A stretch of DNA of 64,000 nucleotides from Candidatus Nomurabacteria bacterium. GTDB lineage: Bacteria > Patescibacteriota > Dojkabacteria > SC72 > JAHDCA01. How positions within the stretch are numbered: position 1 is the stretch's first letter; each line of letters begins with the position of its first letter. Under the pieces are notes generated by a model that saw only the letters and a list, made by a program, of their open reading frames with translations, had not been told where the DNA came from and ran no database searches. Below are positions 5,848-59,669 of the stretch, one piece after another. Made by a program: the position numbers and the translations under genes. The stretch spans positions 34,864-98,863 of the forward strand of contig JACKFQ010000001.1 of NCBI GenBank assembly GCA_020632395.1, read 5' to 3'.

Positions 5848-8124
5848 GTGATCGCAGTGATGTATCTTTTAAATTATCAAAAAGTAAGAATGGACAGAAT
5901 ATTAGCATCAAAAACAACTGAAATGGTAGGAAAAGAAGTGAAAGTGTCAGGCTGGGTCTCAACGATCAGAGATCATGGACAGCTTGTATTTATTGATCTT
6001 CGTGATTGGTCTGGACGGATCCAACTGGTCATATATCCTGATCAGGAAGAAGCATTTGAGATCGCTAAAGGTCTTGGGGCTGAGTTTGTGATCAGTGCAA
6101 CAGGGATTGTCGTTGAAAGAGATAGCTCACTAGTGAACGAAAAATTAGATACAGGCAAGATCGAGATAAAAGTAGAGAAACTTGAATTGATAAACACCTC
6201 TCTACCGATACCATTTCCTTTGGACTCTGATGGACATGAACTGGATGAAAATCTAAGGTTGAAATATCGATATCTGGATCTTAGGAGGGAGCGATTGAAA
6301 GAGAATATGAAAAAGAAACATAAGCTTCTTCTTGCTGTCCGAAATTGGTTCTCTGAAAATGGTTTCACTGAAGTTATAACTCCTTTGCTAACCAGTACCT
6401 CCCCAGAGGGTGCAAGAGATTTTTATATCCCCTCAAGGATCCACCAGGGGAAGTTCTTCGTACTTCCTCAAGCACCACAGCAGTATAAACAGTTGCTCAT
6501 GGTGGGCGGTGTTGATAGATACTTTCAGATAGCACCTTGCGCGAGAGATGAGGATCCAAGGGCAGATAGACATGCGGGAGTTTTCTATCAGATCGATATC
6601 GAGATCAGTTTCCCAACAATAGATATGATCTTTGGCGTTGCCCAGGAGATGATACGATCTACATATCAATCTGTAGCACCTGAAAAGAAATTGATGGAAT
6701 ACCCCTTCCCACGGATCCCGTATGTTGAGGTATTTGATAGATTTGGTACTGATAAACCTGATCTGAGATTTGGGATGGAGCTGAAAGACCTGACGGAATT
6801 GTTGAAAGGAAAAACTGAATTCAAGATATTTAGTGAATCAGAAACTGTCAAATGTGTTGTCGCTCAGGGATGTGGAGTTTGGAGTAGAAAAGATATCGAT
6901 GAAATGGAGGTATTTGCAAAAGAGAATGGTGCAAAAGGTTTAGCATATGCCAAGGTCGTAGGTTCATCATTCAGTTCGGGTGTTTCAAAATATATCGAAC
7001 CATTTGCAAAAGAGATACTTGAAATTACCAGTGCAAAGGATGGCGATATGCTTTTCTTCGTGGCTGATGATCGTGCCGTGGTAAATAAAGTTCTGGGTGC
7101 TGTAAGAAGTCGCTTAGGTGACATGCTCGGTCTTAAGGACCCGAATCTACTTGCTTTAGTATGGATAACTGACTTTCCATTTTATGAGATGGATGAGAAG
7201 AATGGGAAATTGGATTTTGGTCACAACCCTTTTTCAATGCCCAAAGGTGGTATGGCTGCTTTTGATACTGATGATCCACTTACTATCCAATCACATCAGT
7301 ATGATCTAGCATTAAATGGTTATGAATTGGCATCAGGCTCCATCAGAAATCACGATCCGGAAGTGTTAGTAAAAGCATTTGAAACTGTCGGATACGATCG
7401 TGATGAGGTCATTAAAAGGTTTGGGGGCATGTTCAATGCGTTCCAGTACGGAGCACCTCCTCATGGTGGATGGGCAATAGGAGTTGATAGGATGTTCATG
7501 GTGCTAATCGATGAACCTAATATTCGCGATGTATATGCTTTCCCTAAGAACTCAAATGGTATGGATGTGATGATGAATGCGCCTAGCGAGGCTCCTGAAG
7601 CTGATCTTGATGTTCTAGGTATAGAATTGAAAGATAAGGGGTCGAAGACTGTCAAGAGGATCACAGATCGCCTAGATGCGATGAAGATCAACTACCAGTT
7701 AATGGAACATGAGCCTGTTAGGACATCTGAAGAAGCTGCAAAGATCCGCGGTACAAAATTGAGTGAAGGTGCAAAAGCTATGGTACTGCTGTCGAAAGAA
7801 TACGATAATAAGTTCTACATGGTAGTTATACCTGCTGATAAGCAATTAGATCTGCAGAAAGCCTCAAAATATATAGGGGAAGAAGTTCGAGTCGCATCAG
7901 CAGAGGAGGTCGAGGGGTATACAGGAGTTAAAGTAGGAGGAGTACCACCCTTTGGAAGATTGATGGGTATGGATCTGTTCTACGATAGATCTATGTATTC
8001 AAAGGAAAGATCCGCCTTCAATTGTGGTAGGAAAGATAGATCGATCATAATTCAAACAAAAGATCTTATTCGTGCAGCTCAACCTGATAAAAAGTCAGCT
8101 GATATGGATTTTCTGGTAGATTGA
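5848..8124 (+). CDS. aspS: Aspartyl-tRNA synthetase with a C-terminal YbaK/ProX-type aminoacyl-tRNA deacylase domain (fusion)
   Basis: N-terminal OB domain (VSGWVSTIRDHGQLVFIDLRD); class II motifs FYIPSR, QAPQQYKQLLMVGG, FQIAPCARDED, GGWAIGVDR. About 150 aa of YbaK-like sequence follow the normal AspRS end (MEHEPVRTSEEAAK...GVKVGGVPPFG). GAGGGA SD 9 nt before the GTG start. Confidence 0.85.
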   Translation: MIAVMYLLNYQKVRMDRILASKTTEMVGKEVKVSGWVSTIRDHGQLVFIDLRDWSGRIQLVIYPDQEEAFEIAKGLGAEFVISATGIVVERDSSLVNEKLDTGKIEIKVEKLELINTSLPIPFPLDSDGHELDENLRLKYRYLDLRRERLKENMKKKHKLLLAVRNWFSENGFTEVITPLLTSTSPEGARDFYIPSRIHQGKFFVLPQAPQQYKQLLMVGGVDRYFQIAPCARDEDPRADRHAGVFYQIDIEISFPTIDMIFGVAQEMIRSTYQSVAPEKKLMEYPFPRIPYVEVFDRFGTDKPDLRFGMELKDLTELLKGKTEFKIFSESETVKCVVAQGCGVWSRKDIDEMEVFAKENGAKGLAYAKVVGSSFSSGVSKYIEPFAKEILEITSAKDGDMLFFVADDRAVVNKVLGAVRSRLGDMLGLKDPNLLALVWITDFPFYEMDEKNGKLDFGHNPFSMPKGGMAAFDTDDPLTIQSHQYDLALNGYELASGSIRNHDPEVLVKAFETVGYDRDEVIKRFGGMFNAFQYGAPPHGGWAIGVDRMFMVLIDEPNIRDVYAFPKNSNGMDVMMNAPSEAPEADLDVLGIELKDKGSKTVKRITDRLDAMKINYQLMEHEPVRTSEEAAKIRGTKLSEGAKAMVLLSKEYDNKFYMVVIPADKQLDLQKASKYIGEEVRVASAEEVEGYTGVKVGGVPPFGRLMGMDLFYDRSMYSKERSAFNCGRKDRSIIIQTKDLIRAAQPDKKSADMDFLVD

Positions 8125-10521: not shown

Positions 10522-12138
10522 ATGGCAATTATTATGAACAAACCTACTCCAACAGTAAAAAATCACCATAGATACCGTGCAGCACCAAGTCCGACCGGGA
10601 AAGTTCATATCGGAACTGTACGTGCATACCTACCAAATTTCTTGTTAGCAAGAAAAACAGGCGGAAAGAATATACTTCGTATAGAGGACACTGATACACA
10701 GAGAAATGTTCTAGGGAGTGTAGAGGCTGCATCACAAGCTATGGTAGAGGCATATGAAACTGTTGGGATAACTTTTGATGAAGGTCCTCATCTCGGTGGA
10801 GAATACGGTCCGTATATCCAATCCGAAAGATTGTCCATCTATCAGACCCACGCAGAACAATTGGTCGGGAAAGGACATGCCTACTACTGTTTCTGTTCAA
10901 AGGAAAGACTCGCAGAGGTTAGAGAGATACAGAATCAAAATAAACAGAAACCTATGTATGACGGACACTGTAGGGATATTGATCCGAACGAGGCACGAAG
11001 AAGAGTAGAGAATGGAGAACCATATGTGATCCGGATGAAATTCCCAAAGGAAGGTGTGACTATATGTCATGACCAAATTATGGGAGATGTGAAATTCAGG
11101 AATTCAGATATCGAGGATCAAGTTTTGATAAAACAAGACGGCTTCCCCACCTATCATCTCGCTGTAGTGGTTGACGATCATCTGATGAATATCACGACAG
11201 TCATCCGAGGGAATGACTGGGCACCAAGTTTTCCAAAACATGTGAAGCTTTATGAGTATTTTGGATGGGAGATACCAGAATTTGCCCATCTTCCGTTGAT
11301 CTTAAACCCGGATGGAAGAAAGAAATTAAGTAAACGATATGGTGCTAACTCGATCGTTGCACGATTACGAGAAGGATATGTAAAAGAGGGGATAGTAAAC
11401 TATGCGCTCCTTTGTGGATGGGCTCCAGACCCTGCTGTCGCTCACAGAGATGAGATCTATACAATGGAAGAATTGATCGAGCTATTTGATCTTTCTCGGG
11501 TTCATAATACTCCGGCTCGTTATGATCAGAAGAAATTTGACTATATCAATGCCAAACACATTAGAAGATGGAGTCTAGACGAATTTGTTGAAAGAGTGCT
11601 TGATTGGGCAGAAAATATTGTTTTAAAAGACTTTGCGATCGACCAGGTTTCAGGTTTAGAGGATAGGGAATTAGAGATCAGAGAAAAAGTAACAAAGTAC
11701 CTTCCGATGTGGAGATCAGAACCAGACAAATTGAAAGCAGCGTTAGCATTAGAACAAGAGCGGATAACAATTCTTTCTGAACTACTAGACTCAACAGCCT
11801 TCTTCTTCGATGAAGATCTCAATTGGACAGATGAGGATTGGAATACTAAGAATCATGATAAAAAAGAACTCGCAGAAGCACTGCAGGGTATACTACCGAA
11901 ATTAGACATCTTATTTTGTAATGAGAATGTAGCACATGAGGAGTGGGAAGCTGTAGTTCGAGGCTTTGCGGATGAACATGATTGGAAACATGGAGACATG
12001 TTCATGGCTTTACGATCCGCAATTACAGGAAGATTAAAAAGCCCACCAATCTTGGAAAGCATAGAAGCCATGGGTTGGGAGAAGACACGAAAGTTTATTG
12101 TACAGGCGATAAATTATCTTGGTCAGATGGAAATCTAA
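10522..12138 (+). CDS. gltX: Glutamyl-tRNA synthetase (probably non-discriminating)
   Basis: HIGH-class motif PSPTGKVHIGT, KMSKS-type KLSKRYG, GluRS catalytic-domain architecture. Confidence 0.92.
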   Translation: MAIIMNKPTPTVKNHHRYRAAPSPTGKVHIGTVRAYLPNFLLARKTGGKNILRIEDTDTQRNVLGSVEAASQAMVEAYETVGITFDEGPHLGGEYGPYIQSERLSIYQTHAEQLVGKGHAYYCFCSKERLAEVREIQNQNKQKPMYDGHCRDIDPNEARRRVENGEPYVIRMKFPKEGVTICHDQIMGDVKFRNSDIEDQVLIKQDGFPTYHLAVVVDDHLMNITTVIRGNDWAPSFPKHVKLYEYFGWEIPEFAHLPLILNPDGRKKLSKRYGANSIVARLREGYVKEGIVNYALLCGWAPDPAVAHRDEIYTMEELIELFDLSRVHNTPARYDQKKFDYINAKHIRRWSLDEFVERVLDWAENIVLKDFAIDQVSGLEDRELEIREKVTKYLPMWRSEPDKLKAALALEQERITILSELLDSTAFFFDEDLNWTDEDWNTKNHDKKELAEALQGILPKLDILFCNENVAHEEWEAVVRGFADEHDWKHGDMFMALRSAITGRLKSPPILESIEAMGWEKTRKFIVQAINYLGQMEI

Positions 12139-12770
12139 TGATCGTACTTGGTGGAGGTGGAGATGAAAAAAGCGGGTATGAAGCTCATAAACACTTTTAC
12201 ACACTCATAGGCAAGGATAACCCGAGAATACTGTACATCCCTGTCGCTCTTGACCCCACAAAACATCCTTGGGACAGTTGTTTATCATGGATAACAAATG
12301 CTTTTTATGGATTTGGCGATATTCATTTTGATATGATCACAGAATTAGACCAGCTATCTGGTTCTGCTCTCACGCAATATGATGGCATATATATCGGTGG
12401 TGGGAACACCTATAAACTTCTCAAGATCATATACGACACAGAGGTTGATGAAGCACTACGCAATTATGAAAAGAAAGGAGTGATCTTTGGGGGGAGTGCA
12501 GGAGCGATCATAATGGGTGCAGATATCTCTACAGCTGAGACATTTGATCCAAATGAGGTTGGTTTAGATGTAACGAAAGGTTTAGATATGATTTCTGGTT
12601 ATTCAGTATGGCCTCACTACACAGAAGATCATACTTCTAAAATAAAAGAATGGGTTAATGACCACCAGATCCCGGTATTAGCACTCTCTGAAGAAGATAC
12701 AGCCACTCTTGCAGATGGCAAATGGTCTTTATCCGGAATTCATCCTCAACTTTTCGATCTGCAACAGTAG
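12138..12770 (+). CDS. Peptidase E-like S51 family peptidase (alpha-aspartyl dipeptidase / cyanophycinase-like)
   Basis: Start trimmed to the ATG overlapping the gltX stop (TAATG). Motifs IYIGGGNTYKLL and GVIFGGSAGAIIMG; a His is present downstream. Confidence 0.7.
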   Translation: MIVLGGGGDEKSGYEAHKHFYTLIGKDNPRILYIPVALDPTKHPWDSCLSWITNAFYGFGDIHFDMITELDQLSGSALTQYDGIYIGGGNTYKLLKIIYDTEVDEALRNYEKKGVIFGGSAGAIIMGADISTAETFDPNEVGLDVTKGLDMISGYSVWPHYTEDHTSKIKEWVNDHQIPVLALSEEDTATLADGKWSLSGIHPQLFDLQQ

Positions 12771-13086
12771 ATCTCTCCAACACAGAACCACCACCCATAC
12801 CCCAACGTATTCATAACATTATCATTGCTTTTACAGCATGACCCTCTACAAAATTCAAAACCACCTACCAATTTACAAAAGCTCTCATTTGACATTTTTC
12901 TACTTACGTCAATCTTTTACTTTCGAAATTATTTTACATCTGTAATTCATCCGTTTTTGTAACCTCCCAGCCTTCGTAATTCTTCAGCTACGGATAATTA
13001 TTAGTAATTGATAGCAAGTTTCGGCATCATAGGATATAATTCTCATGTTCTACATGAGCTAGGTCTTCTACTTGGTTTATGTTCAT

Positions 13087-13157
13087 TGCCGGGTCGTCTA
13101 ATGGTAGGACGTTGGTTTCTGGCACCAATAATCGGGGTTCGAGTCCCTGCCCGGCAA
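13087..13157 (+). tRNA. tRNA-Gln (anticodon CUG)
   Basis: Manual cloverleaf: acceptor UGCCGGG/CCCGGCA (U1:A72), D stem GUCU/GGAC, anticodon stem UUGGU/ACCAA with loop UUCUGGC, T arm CGGGG-UUCGAGU-CCCUG, discriminator A. CCA not encoded. Confidence 0.8.
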
Positions 13158-13335
13158 GTTGATATCATGTCCTATGGACATTAAAGCAACTTGCATATAT
13201 AGAACGAGAACCCTCGAGCGAAGCTCGAGCAAGGTGAGCCACTCCCGCAAGTGTCCCAAGAGCGTAGCGATTGGCAGACACTCGTGGATCCCGTAAAGCG
13301 AAGCATCGCGGTGGTCCCTCACATCCGCAGGATGG
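13158..13335 (+). other. Hairpin-rich element after tRNA-Gln, ending in a second copy of the tRNA 3' end (GTCCCTGCCCGGC) followed by TACCA
   Basis: Several stem-loops with GNRA-like loops (CUCGAGC-GAA-GCUCGAG, GCGA-AGCA-UCGC, GCAAGUUG...CAACUUGC). 13-nt direct repeat of the tRNA T-stem/acceptor 3' strand at 13144-13156 and 13314-13326. Confidence 0.35.
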
Positions 13336-13409
13336 CGGGAAGTCCCTGCCCGGCTACCAGTTCTTGAGCCTAATCCTATAAATATAAGTTCACACTATAA
13401 GTTAGCGGG

Positions 13410-13835
13410 ATGGGTAAGCAAAAAATACACCTGATCTCAAGGATCTCACTATTTCTCGTATACTTCTGGTTCGGAATACTCAAAGTCTTCTCACTCAGCC
13501 CTGCTGATGAAATAGTGCTTCATCTCCACCAAGTCACAATCCCATTCATCCCATTTGACCTCTTCTTCATAGCACTAGGTCTTTTCGAAACGCTACTAGG
13601 AATAGCATTTCTGATCCCAAAGATCACGAAATATGCGATCCCTGTAATGATGGCGCATATGTTCACAACCATGCTACCACTGCTATTGCTACCACAATAC
13701 GTTTGGGATGGGTTCCTTGTACCCAACTTACTAGGGCAATACATACTCAAGAACGTAGTATTGATATCTTTAGGGTTAATGCTTTTTGTTGAAACTAGAG
13801 AAAAACAATCAATAGTATCGAAACCTCCACAATAA
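13410..13835 (+). CDS. Small integral membrane protein (4 predicted TM helices)
   Basis: 141 aa, hydrophobic throughout, no recognised motif. Confidence 0.5.
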   Translation: MGKQKIHLISRISLFLVYFWFGILKVFSLSPADEIVLHLHQVTIPFIPFDLFFIALGLFETLLGIAFLIPKITKYAIPVMMAHMFTTMLPLLLLPQYVWDGFLVPNLLGQYILKNVVLISLGLMLFVETREKQSIVSKPPQ

Positions 13836-13918
13836 GCAACAAACTCAATATTACAAATATAACCCTTCATCACAGCTGTGTAATATGGTACGCTATAGTA
13901 ATAAGTTAGAGGAAAGAT

Positions 13919-14743
13919 GTGATGGTCGAACAAATCATGGGATATGACCCCTTTAATATGTTTCTGTTTCTTTCTGTAATGATCCTACTTGGGTTTTTTG
14001 TACTTCTATTCGGAGTATCAATCTTCCTGAAGAATAATAATGTGGTAGATCTCGGCTGGGGCTTAGGATTTCCATTATTGGCTTGGATGATCTATTTCTT
14101 CGATGAAAATGTAACTTCAGTACAGATGATCTTAAATACGCTTGTCACAATATGGGGTTTGAGATTGACGATATATTTAGCCATTAGAAGTTTTAAAGCC
14201 GGAGAAGATTGGCGCTATCGAAATTTGCGAAAATCGTGGTATCAAAATTACTATATTAATGCATTTCTCAAGATCTATATGCTTCAAGCGATCTCAATGT
14301 TGATAGTCACCCTCCCTTTGATCTATGTCGCCGGAATAGATAGCAACCGTATAAGCATCGTACAAGCAACATTCATCCTGATATGGACGATCGGATTCTA
14401 CCTAGAGAGCCTTGCTGATCTTCAGTTATATCAATTCAAGTCAAACTCTGAAAATAATGGGAGGCTCCTTACAAAAGGAGTTTGGGGGTTATCGAGACAT
14501 CCGAACTATCTTGGTGAAATGATCATGTGGTGGTCAGTAGCCATTATTTCGGTAAGTGATCTTAGTTCAATATGGGTTCTGGTCGCACCATTTTTCCTAA
14601 CAATCATGATCTATAAAGTGACAGGAGTGAAGCTAATGGAGAAGAAACTGAAAGGATACGAAGGATATATTGACTATATGAGAAAAACTAGAGCGGTGCT
14701 ACCAAATCTTAGACTTGGATCGCAAGAGGCTCAAGTCGCGTAA
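13919..14743 (+). CDS. DUF1295 / steroid 5-alpha-reductase-ICMT-like membrane protein
   Basis: Multi-TM; C-terminal signature GVWGLSRHPNYLGEMIMWW typical of the family. Confidence 0.65.
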   Translation: MMVEQIMGYDPFNMFLFLSVMILLGFFVLLFGVSIFLKNNNVVDLGWGLGFPLLAWMIYFFDENVTSVQMILNTLVTIWGLRLTIYLAIRSFKAGEDWRYRNLRKSWYQNYYINAFLKIYMLQAISMLIVTLPLIYVAGIDSNRISIVQATFILIWTIGFYLESLADLQLYQFKSNSENNGRLLTKGVWGLSRHPNYLGEMIMWWSVAIISVSDLSSIWVLVAPFFLTIMIYKVTGVKLMEKKLKGYEGYIDYMRKTRAVLPNLRLGSQEAQVA

Positions 14744-14791
14744 TATGCCCTTCAGGAAAATTTCATCTAATTCGAATATAATTGTCACATC

Positions 14792-16219
14792 ATGATGATT
14801 GATGAACGAAGAGTCAGACAGATCAAAGGAGCGATAGGTGAAGGATCTGGAGAGGAAAAAATGAGAGAGGAAGAAACTGGATCGAAAGTAGCGGTCGAGA
14901 AAGGGTCTGGAGTTGTTGTTTACTGGATGCGTCGAGATCAACGAGTAGATGAGAATTGGGCTTTTATACATGCTCTACAGAAGGCATTAGCATATAAAGT
15001 ACCCTTAGTAGTATATTTTCAGATAATACAAAATTATCAGTATCCTTATCATAGACATTTCGATTTTATGCTACCAGGACTCGAGGAAGTTGAGCGGAGA
15101 TGTCATACCCTCGGTGTCGGAACCCATATAACGATCGGAAATGGGGTTGCAGATCTCATTAGATTCTTGCAGGAAGTAGGTGCAAGTTTGTTAGTGACAG
15201 ATCATACTCCACTTAGAGGACCAAGCTCTCAGATCACAAAATTACAAGATCAGGTGAATATCCCTATCCATGTTGTAGATGCACATAATGTCATACCAGT
15301 TTGGGAAACCTCAGATAAGCAGGAATATTCAGCAAGAACGATACGAGGGAAGATCTACAAACTACTTGATCAGTTCCTTGTGAAATTTCCTGAGGTCGAT
15401 CAATTGGTAGCACGATCAAAACCTCCATCTTTTCAGACACGGTTCAATAAGATCGATGTTGAAGAAATTAAGTCGAAATTAGACCTAAAACCTCCTGCAC
15501 CTGTGTCTTGGCTAACACCAGGATATGAAGCTGGTATGAGCAAACTAGAAGATTTCATAACTGTAAAATTAGCTAATTATGCAGAGAAGAGAAACGATCC
15601 AAACGAGGATAGCCTCTCAGATCTCTCGCCATATCTGCACTTTGGACAGATCTCAGCTCAAGAGGTAGTTAGTCAGGTTCTTGCGATCGGAAATTCTGGA
15701 TCTGAAGCATTCATAGAGGAGATCCTGATAAGGAGGGAGCTTTCGGAAAACTACTGTTTTTATAATGAAAATTATGATAAATTTGCCGGATTGCCCGAAT
15801 GGGGTAAAAGAACATTAGAGAAGCATTCTATGGACACTCGTGAGCATTTATATACTCTAGATGAATTAGAGCGTGGAGTGACACATGATGCTTTATGGAA
15901 TTCTGCGCAGTCTCAGATGATACATACAGGTAAAATGCATGGGTATATGAGGATGTATTGGGCAAAAAAGATCCTAGAATGGACAAAAACACCTCAGGAG
16001 GCACATCGAATAGCGGTCTATCTGAATGATAAGTATGAATTGGATGGTAGAGATCCAAATGGATATACCGGAGTTGCTTGGGCTATTGGTGGATTGCACG
16101 ATCGACCCTGGGTTGAGCGACAGATATTTGGAAATATCCGATATATGAATTACAATGGAGCTAAAAGGAAATTTGATGTAGATGACTACATATCCCGAAA
16201 TTCGTATAATTCAAAATAA
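14792..16219 (+). CDS. phr: Class II CPD photolyase
   Basis: N-terminal VVYWMRRDQRVDENWA; C-terminal DPNGYTGVAWAIGGLHDRPW...NIRYMNYNGAKRKFDVDDYI, characteristic of class II photolyases. Confidence 0.8.
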   Translation: MMIDERRVRQIKGAIGEGSGEEKMREEETGSKVAVEKGSGVVVYWMRRDQRVDENWAFIHALQKALAYKVPLVVYFQIIQNYQYPYHRHFDFMLPGLEEVERRCHTLGVGTHITIGNGVADLIRFLQEVGASLLVTDHTPLRGPSSQITKLQDQVNIPIHVVDAHNVIPVWETSDKQEYSARTIRGKIYKLLDQFLVKFPEVDQLVARSKPPSFQTRFNKIDVEEIKSKLDLKPPAPVSWLTPGYEAGMSKLEDFITVKLANYAEKRNDPNEDSLSDLSPYLHFGQISAQEVVSQVLAIGNSGSEAFIEEILIRRELSENYCFYNENYDKFAGLPEWGKRTLEKHSMDTREHLYTLDELERGVTHDALWNSAQSQMIHTGKMHGYMRMYWAKKILEWTKTPQEAHRIAVYLNDKYELDGRDPNGYTGVAWAIGGLHDRPWVERQIFGNIRYMNYNGAKRKFDVDDYISRNSYNSK

Positions 16220-26830: not shown

Positions 26831-26943
26831 TGCTGTCTAGCACGCTGGTGCTGTCTAGCACGCTGGTGCTGTCCGGTACACTGGTGCTGTCCGGTACGCT
26901 GGTGCTGTCCGGTACGCTGGTGCTGTCCGGTACACTGGTGCTA
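26831..26943. repeat. 18-bp perfect/near-perfect tandem repeat, about 6.3 copies (TGCTGTCYRGYACRCTGG)
   Basis: Two TGCTGTCTAGCACGCTGG units, then four TGCTGTCCGGTAC(A/G)CTGG units, between convergent genes. Confidence 0.9.
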
Positions 26944-27014
26944 TAAGAATCGACATAAATGAGGATCCCATACACTCATGAAGAGAGTATGAGTTCGATA
27001 GGAAATTTTGGGGG

Positions 27015-46981: not shown

Positions 46982-49900
46982 ATGAATAGATTCAGTAAGA
47001 GAATACCGGTTGCGTATCATGGTGTTCTGTTACTTGTCGTATTTTTTGGTATCACGACTCTGACAGGAGCTAGATTGGTGCGCGCCCAAACCGCAGAAAC
47101 CCTAAATTTCCAGGGTAAAATTGTCCGCAATGATTCGGGCAATGTTGGCATCAACGTATCATCCTCAGAAACTACATGTATCTCCGGCGGTGCCGACAGC
47201 TGTGACTTCAAAGTTGTGTACTACGATGCTTCTACAGGAGGCAACACACTTGGTACTGAACAATTTTCAAATATTGAGATCGGTGCATACGACGGCGTCT
47301 TCAATCTCCCGCTTGGTGCTGGTGATACATGGACAGCTGGTACAGAAACGACATTTTTGGATATCTTCATAAATAATTCGACTGTTTATGCTCAGGTGCA
47401 TTTTGATAAGGAGGGCGATGCCTATCCGGGAGGAGCGTATTCGGATGCATTTGGTAGGATGGCCGTCAGAGCAGCACCTTTTGCGATACGGGCAAATAGT
47501 GCAGATAATATCAATGGATTTGGTGAGGATAATTTTGTGCAGTTTGCACCTTCGGGTGTACAAACCGACACCAGCACATCAAGTTCTATCTTCATCAATA
47601 AAACTGGCGGGAGTGGAAATATCCTCCAATTACAAAAAAGTGCTGCTGATGTCTTTGTGATCGACAACTCAGGAAATGTGGGGATAAACACAACTACACC
47701 TGAATCGTTGTTAGATGTCTATGCAGGTGTGGTCGGTGACATTTTTGAACCAGCGATTACACTTAGGGCAGAGGATGCCCTAGCAGGAGGAAATCCCGAA
47801 CTGCGATTAGGGTTTGACTACGACTACCTTACGGGAGGTTTCAATGCAATAACATTTGAAAGTTACGAACCTCTTGCTGGTGGTGAGGGACATTTTATCT
47901 TCAGATCATCAGGAACTCTTTCTCCATATCGAGTAGAAATTAGAAACGGGTCTCTTATGACTACGGAGGATCTAATGATTGGTGGTGATACACCTCTCAC
48001 ATCGATGTTCTCTGTTGACCAGTCAGCCGGAATTATTTACTTAGGTGCAGATCAATCAGCGAACCCAATTTTAAGATTTGAAGCGACTGATAACGATACC
48101 GCAGATTTTGGATTTAATACTAACGACTCATTTTACTTTACAGGAGGCAATCTAGGTATCGGCGACACCTCCCCAGCCTCCGCCCTCACAGTAGGCAATG
48201 GTGACCTCTTCCAGGTAAACAGTAGTGGACAGATAGCAGCAGCAGCAGGTATCACGAGTAGCGGAACTATAACGTTTAGTGGACTGTCTAATGGAGTTGT
48301 CACGGTTTCATCCGGAGTATTAAGTGGAGGCACTATCGGTGCATCATTTATAACGGCAGACTCTCTTGATTTCACAGAGTTCAAAGATTCCCTAGCACTA
48401 GATGCAAGTACAGATATCGCGGTAGATGGTACAGAGGTATTTTCGATAACTAATACAGGTACGGGTAATAGTTTCCAAGTGAATGATGCGGGATCGGATA
48501 CGACACCGTTCATTATTGACGCGAGTGGTAATGTAGGGATAGGGGTAACGAGTGCATCATACCCACTAGATGTCAACAAATCATTCAGTGCCGGAAGTGG
48601 AAACACGCAAGCTGTATATATTTATGCAAATAGAGGTTTATTGAGTGATCTAGAGACCGGAAATCACATTGGGGTTTTTGTTGATACAAGACTCGATGAT
48701 CAGACTGTAAGTAGTAGGCGGTTGAATGCAAATACAAGAGGAATCTCTTCCTCGATATCATTCCAAAATTCTGCAACAAATTATGGATCGGCTATAGTAT
48801 TTCATGCGACTACAGTGAATTATAACTCTTCAGGAACACCAAACGGTCGTCTTTCATTTTTTGAGGCTGAAATTGGTGCTGGTGCTGCTAGGTATGGAGA
48901 TGTCTACGGCTTAAGGATCAACTCTCTATCAGGTATCTCAGGTACCGCATATGGTGTGTATGTGACTGATGGAAAAAGCTATTTTGGTGGGCAAGTCGGT
49001 GTTGGTACTTCCTCGCCAAGTTCGACATCGATGTTGCATGTTAGTGGTGCGGACAGTAACTTGATAGGTCTAATCGCTGGATCAACAAAAGGAGTCAGAA
49101 TAGGAGCTGATAGTACCGGAGGAAGGATTGGAGGTGTCGACCAAACAGGTGCTGCATCTGATCAGCCATTGACCATAACAGGTACGTACATTAGTTTCGG
49201 TTTACCTTCTGAGGCAATGCGTTTAGCTTCCGGAGGCAATCTAGGTATCGGCGACACCTCCCCAGCTTCCGCCCTCACAGTAGGCAATGGTGACCTCTTC
49301 CAGGTAAACAGTAGTGGACAGATAGCAGCAGCAGCAGGTATCACGAGCAGCGGAAATATAACGTTTAGCGGATTGACTGCAGATAGGTTGGTTGCGACAA
49401 CTACGGGCGGGCAATTAACGAATACGTTGTCCTCTGCAAATCTTGCTCTATCTATTTCAGATGAGACAGGGTCGGGTTTATTAGTATTTGGAACTAGTCC
49501 TACATTTACAACAAGTATTACAACTCCACAGGTGACATACGCAGGAGGTACACTATCAATTCAGACCACAGACTCAAATGCGATCAGTTTGAACTCAGGT
49601 AGCGATACGATCGTCCTAGGGACAAGCAATACTTCTGGAGATGATCTGCTCATACCTGATAGGATCAGTGACTGGGACAATGGTGCATACTATCTCGATC
49701 CTAGTAGCACATCTGTATTGGTAAACCTAACTGTCACAACATCTGAGAATAAGACCAGTGCCACGACTCCTCTACTTTTGGGTGGGTCATTAGCAGCTTC
49801 GAACCTTATCATCCAAAGTACCTCAGGTAACGGTTCAGGGGACTTTATTTCACTACGAGTCGGAAATAACGGAGCTACAGAAGCGATCAGAGTAGTGAGT

Positions 49901-50947
49901 TCAGGTGCCATAGCTATTGGGCAATCTTCAGTGACCTCTGGTAGGCAGATAGACACGTCAAGTGGAGGATATCTGACAAGTGCTGGTGTTTGGACTTCCA
50001 CATCTTCACGAGCTCTAAAGGAGAACTACACGTTATTAGATTATGATCAGATCCTGAATAATATTTCCGAGCTATCTGTGGAGAAGTGGAGCTATAAGGT
50101 CGATGATTCAAAATACTATCATATCGGACCCTATGCTGAGGATTTTTACCAACTATTTAGTGTCGGACAGGATAATAGATCTATCGCTGCTATGGATACA
50201 TCTGGTGTCGCACTTGCCGGGATAAAAGGCTTGGTCAACAGGGTTGCTGATTTGAAAATTATGATAAATGGCATTAAAAATGCCGACAGATCACTTAGAT
50301 CGACCGATCCTAATTCAGCAAAGATCCTGGGAGAGAATACTTCGAGAATATCAGAGATAGATCTACGCATAGATGCCCTAGAAGCCTCAATTGCAATTCT
50401 AGGTGTCGGGACTGGGTCTCCTCAACAGTACTGGAGTATGACGAATACTGGAATTAAGGCAGATACAGAGATTGAAACAGAAGGAGTCTATAGTGGATTT
50501 GGAGTGTTTGGTGATCTAACTTCTGATACACTTTCGATCGCAAGTGGAATGTTTAAGATTTCAACAGAAGGTAATGTCGCAGTTTCTGGAGATATGCTGA
50601 TCAGTGGAGTTCTCTATGGCGATGGAGGTTTGTTGCAGATAGATGGTGATCTGAAACTTGATAGATTGATCGCAAAACAGATCTTGATCGATACAAGCGA
50701 TAAGGATGGGAGAACAGCAGGTAGTGGTGAATTGACAGCATCCTCAACAGAGGTGACTATAGATACAACCTCTGTAGAAGAAGGCTCGAAGATATTAGTA
50801 ACTCCGACCTCTGATACTGCTGGTCAGGTCTTGTATGTCAAAGACAAAGTCGTAGGTAAGGGTTTTACAGTATCTGTTGGGTCACCAATTCCAAACGGAG
50901 TGACATTCGATTGGTGGATATTAAACACATACGATGACGCCAAGTAG
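46982..50947 (+). CDS. Large secreted Gly/Ser/Thr-rich fibre/adhesin-like protein with a C-terminal tail-fibre-type intramolecular chaperone (peptidase S74-like) domain
   Basis: Signal peptide; repeated GNVGI(G/N)TTTP and GGNLGIGDTSPASALTVGNGDLFQVNSSGQIAAAAGITSSG modules. The C-terminus (SSRALKENYTLLDYDQILNNISELSVEKWSYK...YHIGPYAEDFYQLF...ALAGIKGL) matches the S74 CIMCD consensus. Confidence 0.7.
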   Translation: MNRFSKRIPVAYHGVLLLVVFFGITTLTGARLVRAQTAETLNFQGKIVRNDSGNVGINVSSSETTCISGGADSCDFKVVYYDASTGGNTLGTEQFSNIEIGAYDGVFNLPLGAGDTWTAGTETTFLDIFINNSTVYAQVHFDKEGDAYPGGAYSDAFGRMAVRAAPFAIRANSADNINGFGEDNFVQFAPSGVQTDTSTSSSIFINKTGGSGNILQLQKSAADVFVIDNSGNVGINTTTPESLLDVYAGVVGDIFEPAITLRAEDALAGGNPELRLGFDYDYLTGGFNAITFESYEPLAGGEGHFIFRSSGTLSPYRVEIRNGSLMTTEDLMIGGDTPLTSMFSVDQSAGIIYLGADQSANPILRFEATDNDTADFGFNTNDSFYFTGGNLGIGDTSPASALTVGNGDLFQVNSSGQIAAAAGITSSGTITFSGLSNGVVTVSSGVLSGGTIGASFITADSLDFTEFKDSLALDASTDIAVDGTEVFSITNTGTGNSFQVNDAGSDTTPFIIDASGNVGIGVTSASYPLDVNKSFSAGSGNTQAVYIYANRGLLSDLETGNHIGVFVDTRLDDQTVSSRRLNANTRGISSSISFQNSATNYGSAIVFHATTVNYNSSGTPNGRLSFFEAEIGAGAARYGDVYGLRINSLSGISGTAYGVYVTDGKSYFGGQVGVGTSSPSSTSMLHVSGADSNLIGLIAGSTKGVRIGADSTGGRIGGVDQTGAASDQPLTITGTYISFGLPSEAMRLASGGNLGIGDTSPASALTVGNGDLFQVNSSGQIAAAAGITSSGNITFSGLTADRLVATTTGGQLTNTLSSANLALSISDETGSGLLVFGTSPTFTTSITTPQVTYAGGTLSIQTTDSNAISLNSGSDTIVLGTSNTSGDDLLIPDRISDWDNGAYYLDPSSTSVLVNLTVTTSENKTSATTPLLLGGSLAASNLIIQSTSGNGSGDFISLRVGNNGATEAIRVVSSGAIAIGQSSVTSGRQIDTSSGGYLTSAGVWTSTSSRALKENYTLLDYDQILNNISELSVEKWSYKVDDSKYYHIGPYAEDFYQLFSVGQDNRSIAAMDTSGVALAGIKGLVNRVADLKIMINGIKNADRSLRSTDPNSAKILGENTSRISEIDLRIDALEASIAILGVGTGSPQQYWSMTNTGIKADTEIETEGVYSGFGVFGDLTSDTLSIASGMFKISTEGNVAVSGDMLISGVLYGDGGLLQIDGDLKLDRLIAKQILIDTSDKDGRTAGSGELTASSTEVTIDTTSVEEGSKILVTPTSDTAGQVLYVKDKVVGKGFTVSVGSPIPNGVTFDWWILNTYDDAK

Positions 50948-59225: not shown

Positions 59226-59669
59226 GAGCATTTTGTCATAGTTCGAACTCCATCAGTGCGAAGCACTGAGAGTTCTGAAAACATGCAGTACATGCTTCTG
59301 CATGTATCTAGCGAGCGTCATCTCGTTTCCCGCTTCAAAAGAAAAGTTAATCAAACATTCCATGAATCTATTTACACTAAACCATTTTACCGAACTACAT
59401 TGGTTCGAGCTTTGTTCTACCAAACTTACTAACAAACGCAAGTGTACCATTACACCAAGTATATCTCGGTTCGAACCCAGTGTGATGTAGCTTATCTACA
59501 TATCATAAATCAATAGAATTTTTCTTTGCTGTCATTCTCCAAAGTACATAAAACATTGAAGACTGTGTAATTAAGAATCGGAACAAATATTTAGTCATAG
59601 CAGTAATTTGTAGACGAATTTCAAATTATTAAATAACGAAAATACCGACTTTACTGAGTAAAATCAAAA

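Follow-up and report, generated by a model that had tools for sequence, protein, structure and literature searches.

The 3′ end of a tRNA-Gln gene in a Candidatus Nomurabacteria (Patescibacteria/CPR) genome is followed by a real, non-random and conserved feature. Among known kinds it comes closest to a tDNA integration footprint or CIME, and within that kind it is an extreme variant, structured and devoid of genes. The last bases of the tRNA, AGTCCCTGCCCGGC, form an exact 14-nt direct repeat at 13142–13155 and, 199 nt apart on the same strand, at 13341–13354 of the 64-kb stretch of DNA that was analysed (the window). We tentatively favour, at somewhat less than even confidence, the reading that a gene-less module was inserted at the 3′ end of tRNA-Gln. 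The tRNA would have been regenerated and the native, CCA-bearing end displaced, and the module itself would be non-autonomous.

The tRNA-Gln gene and its repeated 3′ end

The locus lies in a housekeeping neighbourhood of the genome, with the following genes and repeat features.

5848–8124: AspRS gene, upstream of tRNA-Gln
Listed between AspRS and GluRS: D-Ala-D-Ala carboxypeptidase gene, upstream of tRNA-Gln
10522–12138: GluRS gene, upstream of tRNA-Gln
Ending at 12770: S51 peptidase gene, upstream of tRNA-Gln
13087–13157, + strand: tRNA-Gln(CUG), intact cloverleaf (ARAGORN, Rfam RF00005, sequence)
13142–13155, + strand: left repeat, AGTCCCTGCCCGGC, T-loop A58 to acceptor position 71 of the working tRNA (repeat search, shuffles)
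13341–13354, + strand: right repeat, AGTCCCTGCCCGGC, read as a displaced copy of the tRNA 3′ end (repeat search, shuffles)
13355–13362, + strand: TACCAGTT, aligned to AA-GTT of tRNA-Gln (sequence)
13410–13835, + strand: DoxX/YkgB-like membrane protein gene, with the element 55 nt before it
Downstream of DoxX: DUF1295 gene and photolyase gene

The clean tRNA-Gln(CUG) of the original prediction is borne out both by ARAGORN, which calls tRNA-Gln(ctg) at 13086–13158, and by Rfam (RF00005, 60.7 bits). The tRNA has a U1-A72 pair and the discriminator A73, and its CCA is not encoded. In the same genome CCA is encoded in tRNA-Phe and tRNA-Gly, and not in tRNA-Asn. No terminator-like site was found on the + strand between tRNA-Gln and the DoxX gene.

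The second copy of the tRNA T-stem/acceptor 3′ strand, which had been described as exact, is real and at 14 nt one base longer than claimed. A search with the 13-mer noted originally, allowing up to two mismatches, gave two sites only in the 64 kb, and two sites were obtained in none of 100 shuffles. With a 17-mer and up to three mismatches the two repeat sites stood alone in the window. A third, degenerate repeat bounding a larger downstream island was not found in the window at up to three mismatches, and the composition does not shift downstream of the element.

Directly after the right repeat, the T-ACCA reported earlier can be read at 13355–13359. Following the 14-mer, tRNA-Gln runs A-A-GTT and the distal copy T-A-CCA-GTT; when both are aligned, the distal copy has a T at position 72 (A in the tRNA), the discriminator A, an extra CCA and then GTT. 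Judged from its sequence, the right copy with TACCAGTT resembles the displaced end of a native tRNA gene: it has a discriminator and an encoded CCA, and its trailer starts with the same bases. We read it as a native CCA-bearing end; tRNA-Phe and tRNA-Gly of the same genome do encode CCA. The T at position 72 of this putative native end would mismatch U1, and a later mutation therefore has to be assumed if the module was inserted. It was the ACCA that gave the locus its tRNA-like look, for which a displaced native gene end is, in our view, the better account.

Composition and folding of the element

From repeat to repeat the element comprises 199 nt (13156–13354), with 185 nt between the copies. 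The hairpin-rich element of the original prediction was thus confirmed in its structure, but not in its length, which had been put at about 170 nt. The GC content is 58–61% in 100-nt windows and up to 65% in 80-nt windows, versus a mean of 39% for the window. Folding beats shuffles moderately (z = −2.6 for 13158–13360 and −3.4 for 13087–13360), and z-scores over folds of the element range from −2.6 to −4.5. The hairpin caps are triloops closed by C-G, i.e. C-GNA-G, and not GNRA tetraloops as the predicted GNRA-like loops would have it: GAA in H1, GUA in P2, GAA in P3 and GCA in H3. Folding energy assigns no strand because both fold equally well; the GNA loop pattern alone favours the + strand. 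The parts of the element are as follows, L011 being the related locus described in the next section.

13154–13194, + strand: H0, 19-bp imperfect trailer hairpin (inverted repeat, L011 counterpart, pair counts)
13187–13220, + strand: 34-nt block CAACTTGCATATATAGAACGAGAACCCTCGAGCG, identical in L011 and mostly unpaired (alignments)
13213–13229, + strand: H1, 7-bp hairpin CTCGAGC-GAA-GCTCGAG, loop GCA in L011 (folds, L011 comparison)
13231–13240, + strand: linker AAGGTGAGCC, invariant relative to L011 (alignment)
13244–13248, + strand: 5′ strand of the S stem, CCCGC, pairing with 13335–13339 (folds of window and L011)
13250–13321, + strand: window-specific 72-nt expansion within the S stem, absent from L011 (alignment, folds)
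13250–13282, + strand: P2 hairpin with GUA loop and tandem G-A (folds)
13286–13317, + strand: P3 hairpin with GAA loop (folds)
13322–13334, + strand: H3 hairpin CATCC-GCA-GGATG, loop GAA in L011 (folds, L011 comparison)
13335–13339, + strand: 3′ strand of the S stem, GCGGG (folds)

H0 begins within the last bases of tRNA-Gln. The 34-nt block holds a weak −35/−10-like arrangement, and the 72-nt expansion is bounded by TCCCGCA/TCCCTCA.

The folds bear on the earlier suggestion of a tRNA-like, 3′-terminated small RNA. Such a product could be a tRNA- or tmRNA-like RNA with a functional ACCA end, or a giant tRNA-Gln precursor made of the 5′ acceptor strand and the distal repeat. The global MFE structure of 13087–13360 does pair the tRNA 5′ acceptor strand with the distal copy (−105.1 kcal/mol, versus a sum of −96.5 kcal/mol for separate folds of the tRNA, −26.7, and the rest, −69.8), and ACCA stands after that copy. 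However, the closing helix of the window, GGUGAGCC/GGCUACC, has no counterpart in L011 and cannot form there, and the ACCA is missing from that locus as well. A T-stem-like hairpin could alternatively arise between the GCGGG strand and CCCTG of the tail, but its loop of 3–5 nt is no canonical T-loop, and neither ARAGORN nor Rfam detected a tmRNA or tRNA-like RNA. These results weaken the suggestion, and we regard a product of this type as highly improbable.

The antisense 74-aa ORF across the element had been called spurious, and rightly so: it has no Pfam match, and a search with the 78-aa frame against 1.84 billion representative proteins yielded one weak, repetitive match. Group I splicing was considered and excluded, as the tRNA is uninterrupted, RF00028 gives no match and the splice-site rule is violated. 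Group I splicing needs a U at the end of the 5′ exon and a G at the end of the intron. Here, with any splice sites inside the repeat, 5′ exon and intron would share their last base, and splicing at the 3′ edge of the repeat would end both in C.

The related locus and the origin of the element

One informative relative, the only related locus found, is L011, an ENA contig of 855 nt; its DoxX protein and that of the window are about 78% identical. A synteny walk via homologues of DoxX, the S51 peptidase and DUF1295 gave L011 as the sole close relative, besides distant CPR contigs without synteny. The lineage is thinly sampled; next-best homologues of three neighbouring proteins are 77%, 48% and 41% identical. 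At the element, one SNP is the only difference among contigs of this species from many samples.

Upstream of DoxX, L011 contains a shorter form of the element that consists of the 34-nt block, H1, the linker, the S stem, H3 and the 14-nt tail. It had been considered that the whole segment might be an indel between related genomes; L011 does lack 72 nt (13250–13321), but it keeps the core and the tail repeat. The S stem, with 5/5 pairs present in the window and L011, encloses H3 alone in L011 and P2, P3 and H3 in the window. As this stem is formed in both folds, the length difference represents an expansion nested inside a shared helix.

Between the two loci the element is 88–93% identical. For the DoxX gene the identity is 76.8% overall, falling to 56.8% at third codon positions, and the spacer that separates the element from the −10-like box of DoxX cannot be aligned. 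Changes are concentrated in the variable part of H0 (8 of 33 columns versus 7 of 97 elsewhere, Fisher p = 0.022). H0 is the most variable part of the element in this comparison, and its pairing is kept (~19 bp at both loci), including one double change from U-A to C-G. Both orthologous loop differences (GAA/GCA in H1, GCA/GAA in H3) alter only the N of GNA. Since the identity lies above that of third codon positions and the changes are uneven within the element, the core is apparently not decaying junk; on the sequence level it is either constrained, or recently transferred and internally constrained too. The high identity of the two species could stem from recent transfer instead of selection, and with two sequences only, most stems are invariant and give no covariation support.

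This pattern has to be weighed against the view that the locus is an inert scar, i.e. the leftover arms of a prophage or island deleted from tRNA-Gln, without present function. The attL/attR-type geometry and the absence of genes from the insert fit such a scar, and tRNA gene fragments of this sort are pervasive in prokaryotes (PMC9897764). Yet the junction and core are 88–93% identical in a species with synonymous sites near saturation, and substitutions are uneven within the element (p = 0.022) and avoid the stems. Att arms are normally AT-rich protein-binding DNA, unlike the GC-rich stacked hairpins found here. We consider an inert scar unlikely. Of the decayed integrative element that the original prediction had placed at the tRNA 3′ end, the att anatomy holds; the decay does not, as the core is conserved relative to L011.

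L011 also bears on a cis-regulatory role, in which the element would be a leader or riboswitch of the DoxX/YkgB-like membrane protein gene that follows 55 nt downstream on the same strand. In both loci, however, DoxX keeps its own conserved TATAAG (−10-like) box and 8-nt leader, and the element of L011 lies about 190 nt from the start codon, a distance that includes an additional insert of ~150 nt. Neither a terminator nor an SD-sequestering hairpin is present at the start, and no riboswitch family matches. This part of the prediction thus found no support, and we give it almost no credence.

It is important to note that the start of the L011 contig carries a second copy of the element end. 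Positions 1–27 are identical to 128–154, and the repeat continues, after a 1-nt indel, with a further 24 identical nt. Each L011 tail is followed by AAGTAGACAT, which resembles the tRNA trailer of the window, AAGTTGATAT, and ACCA is absent. On this sequence evidence L011 appears to hold at least two tandem units with ends 127–128 nt apart and the same 10-nt trailer after each. At a contig coverage of 0.89x the tandem copy could be partly an assembly effect, but the 1-nt difference between the copies argues for two real ones. The flank of L011, with AAGTAGACAT after the last copy, fits unequal crossing-over equally well as integration.

The trailers are well explained by a different origin, which we hold to be possible though rather unlikely, namely a structured ncRNA that arose on the spot, without a mobile element, after the tRNA-Gln gene and its trailer had been partially duplicated in tandem. 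The tail and H0 would then be a shared 3′-processing cassette, co-transcribed with the tRNA; in L011 every tail does have a tRNA-like trailer. Several other features agree with an RNA that arose in place: the GC-rich island in a 39% GC genome, folding beyond that of shuffles (z = −2.6 to −4.5), core conservation exceeding that of neutral sites, expansion within a shared stem, loops that vary only at the N of GNA, H0 with ~19 bp at both loci and one compensatory pair, and the location on the tRNA strand with no intervening terminator. On the other hand, duplication of a CCA-less gene leaves the extra CCA of the window unexplained, and the compositional contrast remains unexplained too; an RNA gene of this origin requires neither GC-foreign composition nor tandem units. 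Moreover, Rfam gives no match even with E up to 10, inside the element there is no partner strand for the acceptor portion of the tail, and two sequences yield almost no covariation.

According to the insertion reading, which we prefer, a small module would have been inserted by recombination across the 3′ end of tRNA-Gln. It would have brought its own copy of at least the last 14 tRNA bases and so have restored the gene, which no longer encodes CCA. The original 3′ end, still with its CCA and its trailer, would have been pushed 199 bp downstream, where it would persist as the right repeat. The module would be non-autonomous, its constrained part being the hairpin core (H0, H1 and the S stem around H3, with or without P2 and P3). 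The empty-site junction would read GGTTCGAGTCCCTGCCCGGCTACCAG, and a circle or tandem junction GGCGGGAAGTCCCTGCCCGGCAAGTTGATAT. We infer that the insertion was site-specific and catalysed in trans. Because the core lies on the same strand as the tRNA and no terminator separates them, co-transcription with the tRNA, as a structured RNA, is most likely, and the core may keep a role in mobility, in RNA processing or stability, or in both.

Several observations speak for insertion. The repeat has the register of an att site of the T-stem class, the core shows constraint, the right copy continues like a real tRNA gene end with CCA, the insert is compositionally foreign (58–65% versus 39% GC), and the putative tandem units of L011 match the pattern of accretion or tandem integration (PMC5704250, PMC4383910). 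Against it stand the T at position 72 with its U1 mismatch and the lack of a recombinase gene in the scanned ORFs of the 64 kb. In addition, no other copy was found in the window, GTDB representatives, JGI, IMG/VR, or phage or plasmid records, and a double-stranded circle of 127–199 bp would be implausibly small as an integrase substrate.

The underlying searches had the following scope. A Pfam scan of window ORFs of at least 150 aa and some shorter ones revealed no integrase, transposase, TnpB, Cas or reverse transcriptase; ten ORFs of at least 150 aa had no match, and three overlapping, probably spurious ORFs were left out. Rfam, including its tmRNA, group I intron, riboswitch, ribozyme and omega-RNA/HEARO models (gathering thresholds and cmscan with E up to 10; 12950–13450 and all of L011), returned no family besides tRNA, the rest being noise. 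Exact-pattern scans, which are insensitive to diverged copies, found nothing in IMG/VR for 18–19-mers of the element, the tail junction, or the tRNA end with trailer. An 18-mer gave 7 apparent chance matches among GTDB species representatives, all in unrelated taxa and none in Nomurabacteria; the one that was read (L012) is a coding-region match. The tail junction had 65 matches in JGI metagenomes, none of them with element flanks and most of them in GC-rich DNA. Only noise came from blastn searches of phage and plasmid records, a covariance model (R1) recovered the two known copies only and a weak, hairpin-driven match in L008, and the assembled contigs showed no branch at 13155/13156. An integron attC site was rejected, as the junctions GTTGATA (window) and AAGTAGA (L011) do not fit GTTRRRY and there is no intI in the window.

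Assemblies break within the element far more often than elsewhere. Of ten upstream contigs that bear S51, eight end at 13188–13380; of six downstream contigs, four begin at 13263 and the others at 13192 or 13204. The contigs on either side share exactly 30 nt (13263–13292) in two runs; as this equals k−1 for k = 31, it indicates a graph branch at 13262/13293. The breaks could come from co-occurring diverged copies, or from systematic Illumina sequencing errors at GC-rich inverted repeats, and they were not relied on as evidence for other copies of the element.

The order of the parts also recalls guide RNAs, since omega-RNAs and CAST homing guides consist of a scaffold and a target-matching 3′ segment. 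By analogy, a scaffold of ~135 nt (13205–13340) with a 3′ segment of 14–24 nt identical to tRNA-Gln might serve a transposase or nuclease that is RNA-guided and encoded elsewhere, much as a TnpB omega-RNA or a type V-K CAST homing crRNA does. A scaffold followed by a target-identical 3′ segment is visible in the sequence, the scaffold is conserved, and the tail starts at the same tRNA base in 3/3 copies. Nevertheless, the scanned window ORFs include no TnpB, Cas12 or IS110 gene, Rfam gave no hit even with its guide-RNA and omega-RNA families, no TAM/PAM logic was recognised, and one copy is known per locus. A guide-RNA-like module is very unlikely in our estimation. Checked against IS200/IS605-type miniature elements (PATEs) and TnpB omega-RNAs, the element has hairpins and is single-copy in the 64 kb, and no transposase was found in the scanned window ORFs.

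A bolder form of the insertion reading, which we likewise think improbable, is a gene-less homing module of 130–200 nt that copies itself behind the 3′ end of tRNA-Gln and can accrete there in tandem. Its route would be either folded hairpin DNA with an att mimic, or a scaffold with a guide RNA tail for an effector elsewhere. Such a module, if true, would be by far the smallest site-specific integrative element known.

If the preferred insertion reading holds, the geometry of tDNA integration can accommodate something that is not an island, namely a 200-bp gene-less, conserved hairpin core, and this in one of the most streamlined bacterial lineages. One could then test whether CPR bacteria are home to miniature elements, trans-mobilised or RNA-based, with tRNA ends as their targets, and whether remnants of such insertions become domesticated as tRNA-linked structured RNAs. 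If, on the other hand, the element represents a lineage-specific RNA, it adds to the orphan ncRNA candidates and at present has too few homologues for a family.

Comparison with known systems

Structured, GC-rich, RNA-like insertions of ~200 nt at tRNA genes are known from the same phylum as group I introns, which in Patescibacteria tRNAs interrupt the anticodon loop and fit the group I model (PMC13011429). The element shares these general traits, but here the tRNA is uninterrupted and Rfam gives no group I match. Plant mitochondrial t-elements and mascRNA/MALAT1 form a mimic of the acceptor stem and T-arm. By analogy, a tRNA-derived sequence may likewise end a structured unit near a tRNA-type processing context in our case; the tail of the element, however, has neither the 5′ partner strand nor the T-loop.

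A partial 3′ copy beside a complete gene, with repeated copies marking successive events, is shared with tRNA fragments (PMC9897764) and with the tandem ssrA remnants of Dehalococcoides (PMC3146451). While those bound recognisable islands, the copies described here bound a small noncoding module.

During tDNA integration the gene receives a new 3′ end from the incoming DNA, and its native end comes to lie on the far side (PMC4383910, PMC9897764). In Islander, 3760 of 3919 islands have a 3′ tDNA fragment, 1836 have a site in the T-stem region, and tandem island arrays are recorded (PMC4383910). Like the tyrosine-integrase islands and prophages at tDNAs (PMC4383910), our locus combines a regenerated tRNA with a displaced direct 3′ fragment. 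The repeat extends from T-loop A58 to position 71, which corresponds to the T-stem class of Islander, the composition of the interval is unlike that of the host, and the relative L011 appears to have tandem units. The differences are equally clear: the interval measures 199 bp (127–128 bp in L011) instead of kilobases, it contains no integrase or other gene, nor do the scanned window ORFs include an integrase, and a conserved hairpin-rich core takes the place of cargo.

CIMEs are cis-mobilizable elements that retain attL and attR but no longer possess genes for integration and transfer; both tandem units and such att-flanked, gene-less remnants are known outcomes of integration (PMC5704250). 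The element resembles CIMEs (PMC5704250) in its att-type repeats, the lack of recombination genes, and an apparent tandem arrangement or accretion at a tRNA 3′ end. No ICE/IME-type relative with this tRNA end was found in IMG/VR, phage or plasmid records. We know of no partner element for the CIME-like element, and the CIMEs described to our knowledge are decayed, kilobase-scale remnants of ICEs or IMEs in Firmicutes. The element agrees with CIMEs in their formal definition only, i.e. repeats kept and no genes between them, and it differs from them in being two orders of magnitude smaller, strongly structured and conserved.

Contig breaks in the element and the genes downstream of it

Within the hairpin-rich segment that lies 3' of tRNA-Gln(CUG) (the element), contig breaks are unusually frequent in assemblies of the window's species (window 13188-13380). 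In both SRR23924736 and SRR23924729, the contigs flanking the break share exactly 30 nt (13263-13292), an overlap characteristic of a branch in a k=31 graph.

For the genes directly 3' of the element (window 13410-16219), close relatives were not found in the searched collection, same-species matches and L011 aside, the latter being an 855-nt ENA contig with a shorter form of the element upstream of its DoxX gene. After these matches, the next-best homologue in that collection is 57% identical for the DoxX-like protein and 41% identical for the DUF1295 protein, and some of the named DUF1295 matches belong to Bacteroidota. Neither a composition shift nor a further repeat was found that would mark the genes of window 13410-16219 as an island.

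The L011 contig holds additional sequence in front of its DoxX gene:

L011:178-343, about 150 nt without counterpart in the window, downstream of the element and upstream of the DoxX -10-like box

This stretch is bracketed by an imperfect direct repeat of 16 nt (TTCTTCTCAACAAATA / TTCATGTGAACAAATA) and by eye contains a 25-codon ORF preceded by AAGGAG.

Other features of the window

Window 5848-8124, AspRS gene, C-terminal YbaK/ProX-type domain (PF04073)
Window 26831-26945, intergenic, about seven tandem copies of the 18-nt unit TGCTGTCYRGYACRCTGG
Window 46982-50947, 1321-aa protein, Pfam PF13884
Window 59253-59269, + strand, intergenic, perfect hairpin with a C-GAA-G cap, TCAGTGCGAAGCACTGA

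In AspRS, the synthetase is fused to a YbaK/ProX-type aminoacyl-tRNA editing domain. The tandem repeat, with a GC content of up to 65%, sits in the spacer that separates the genes for a trypsin-like protease and a MASE6-domain protein. The sole Pfam match of the 1321-aa protein is the intramolecular chaperone domain of endosialidase/tail-fibre proteins. The hairpin, shortly preceded by a canonical terminator, is a third perfect C-GAA-G-capped one on the + strand.

A tRNA-Ser locus in another CPR contig

L008:3215-3501, - strand, tRNA-Ser(CGA) and 3' palindrome/hairpin region

After this tRNA comes a perfect 25-bp inverted repeat, within which lie an intrinsic terminator and the 3' strand of the tRNA's acceptor stem. 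Beyond it lies a GC-rich stretch that folds strongly (z = -6.9 for a 201-nt region, palindrome included), copies the T-loop/T-stem twice, as a 12-nt inverted and a 9-nt direct copy, and also has a GCGAAGCCC/GGGCTTCGC hairpin. Judged by sequence, the region shares no homology with the window element; the two loci are nevertheless alike in that GC hairpins and partial copies of the tRNA 3' end adjoin a tRNA.
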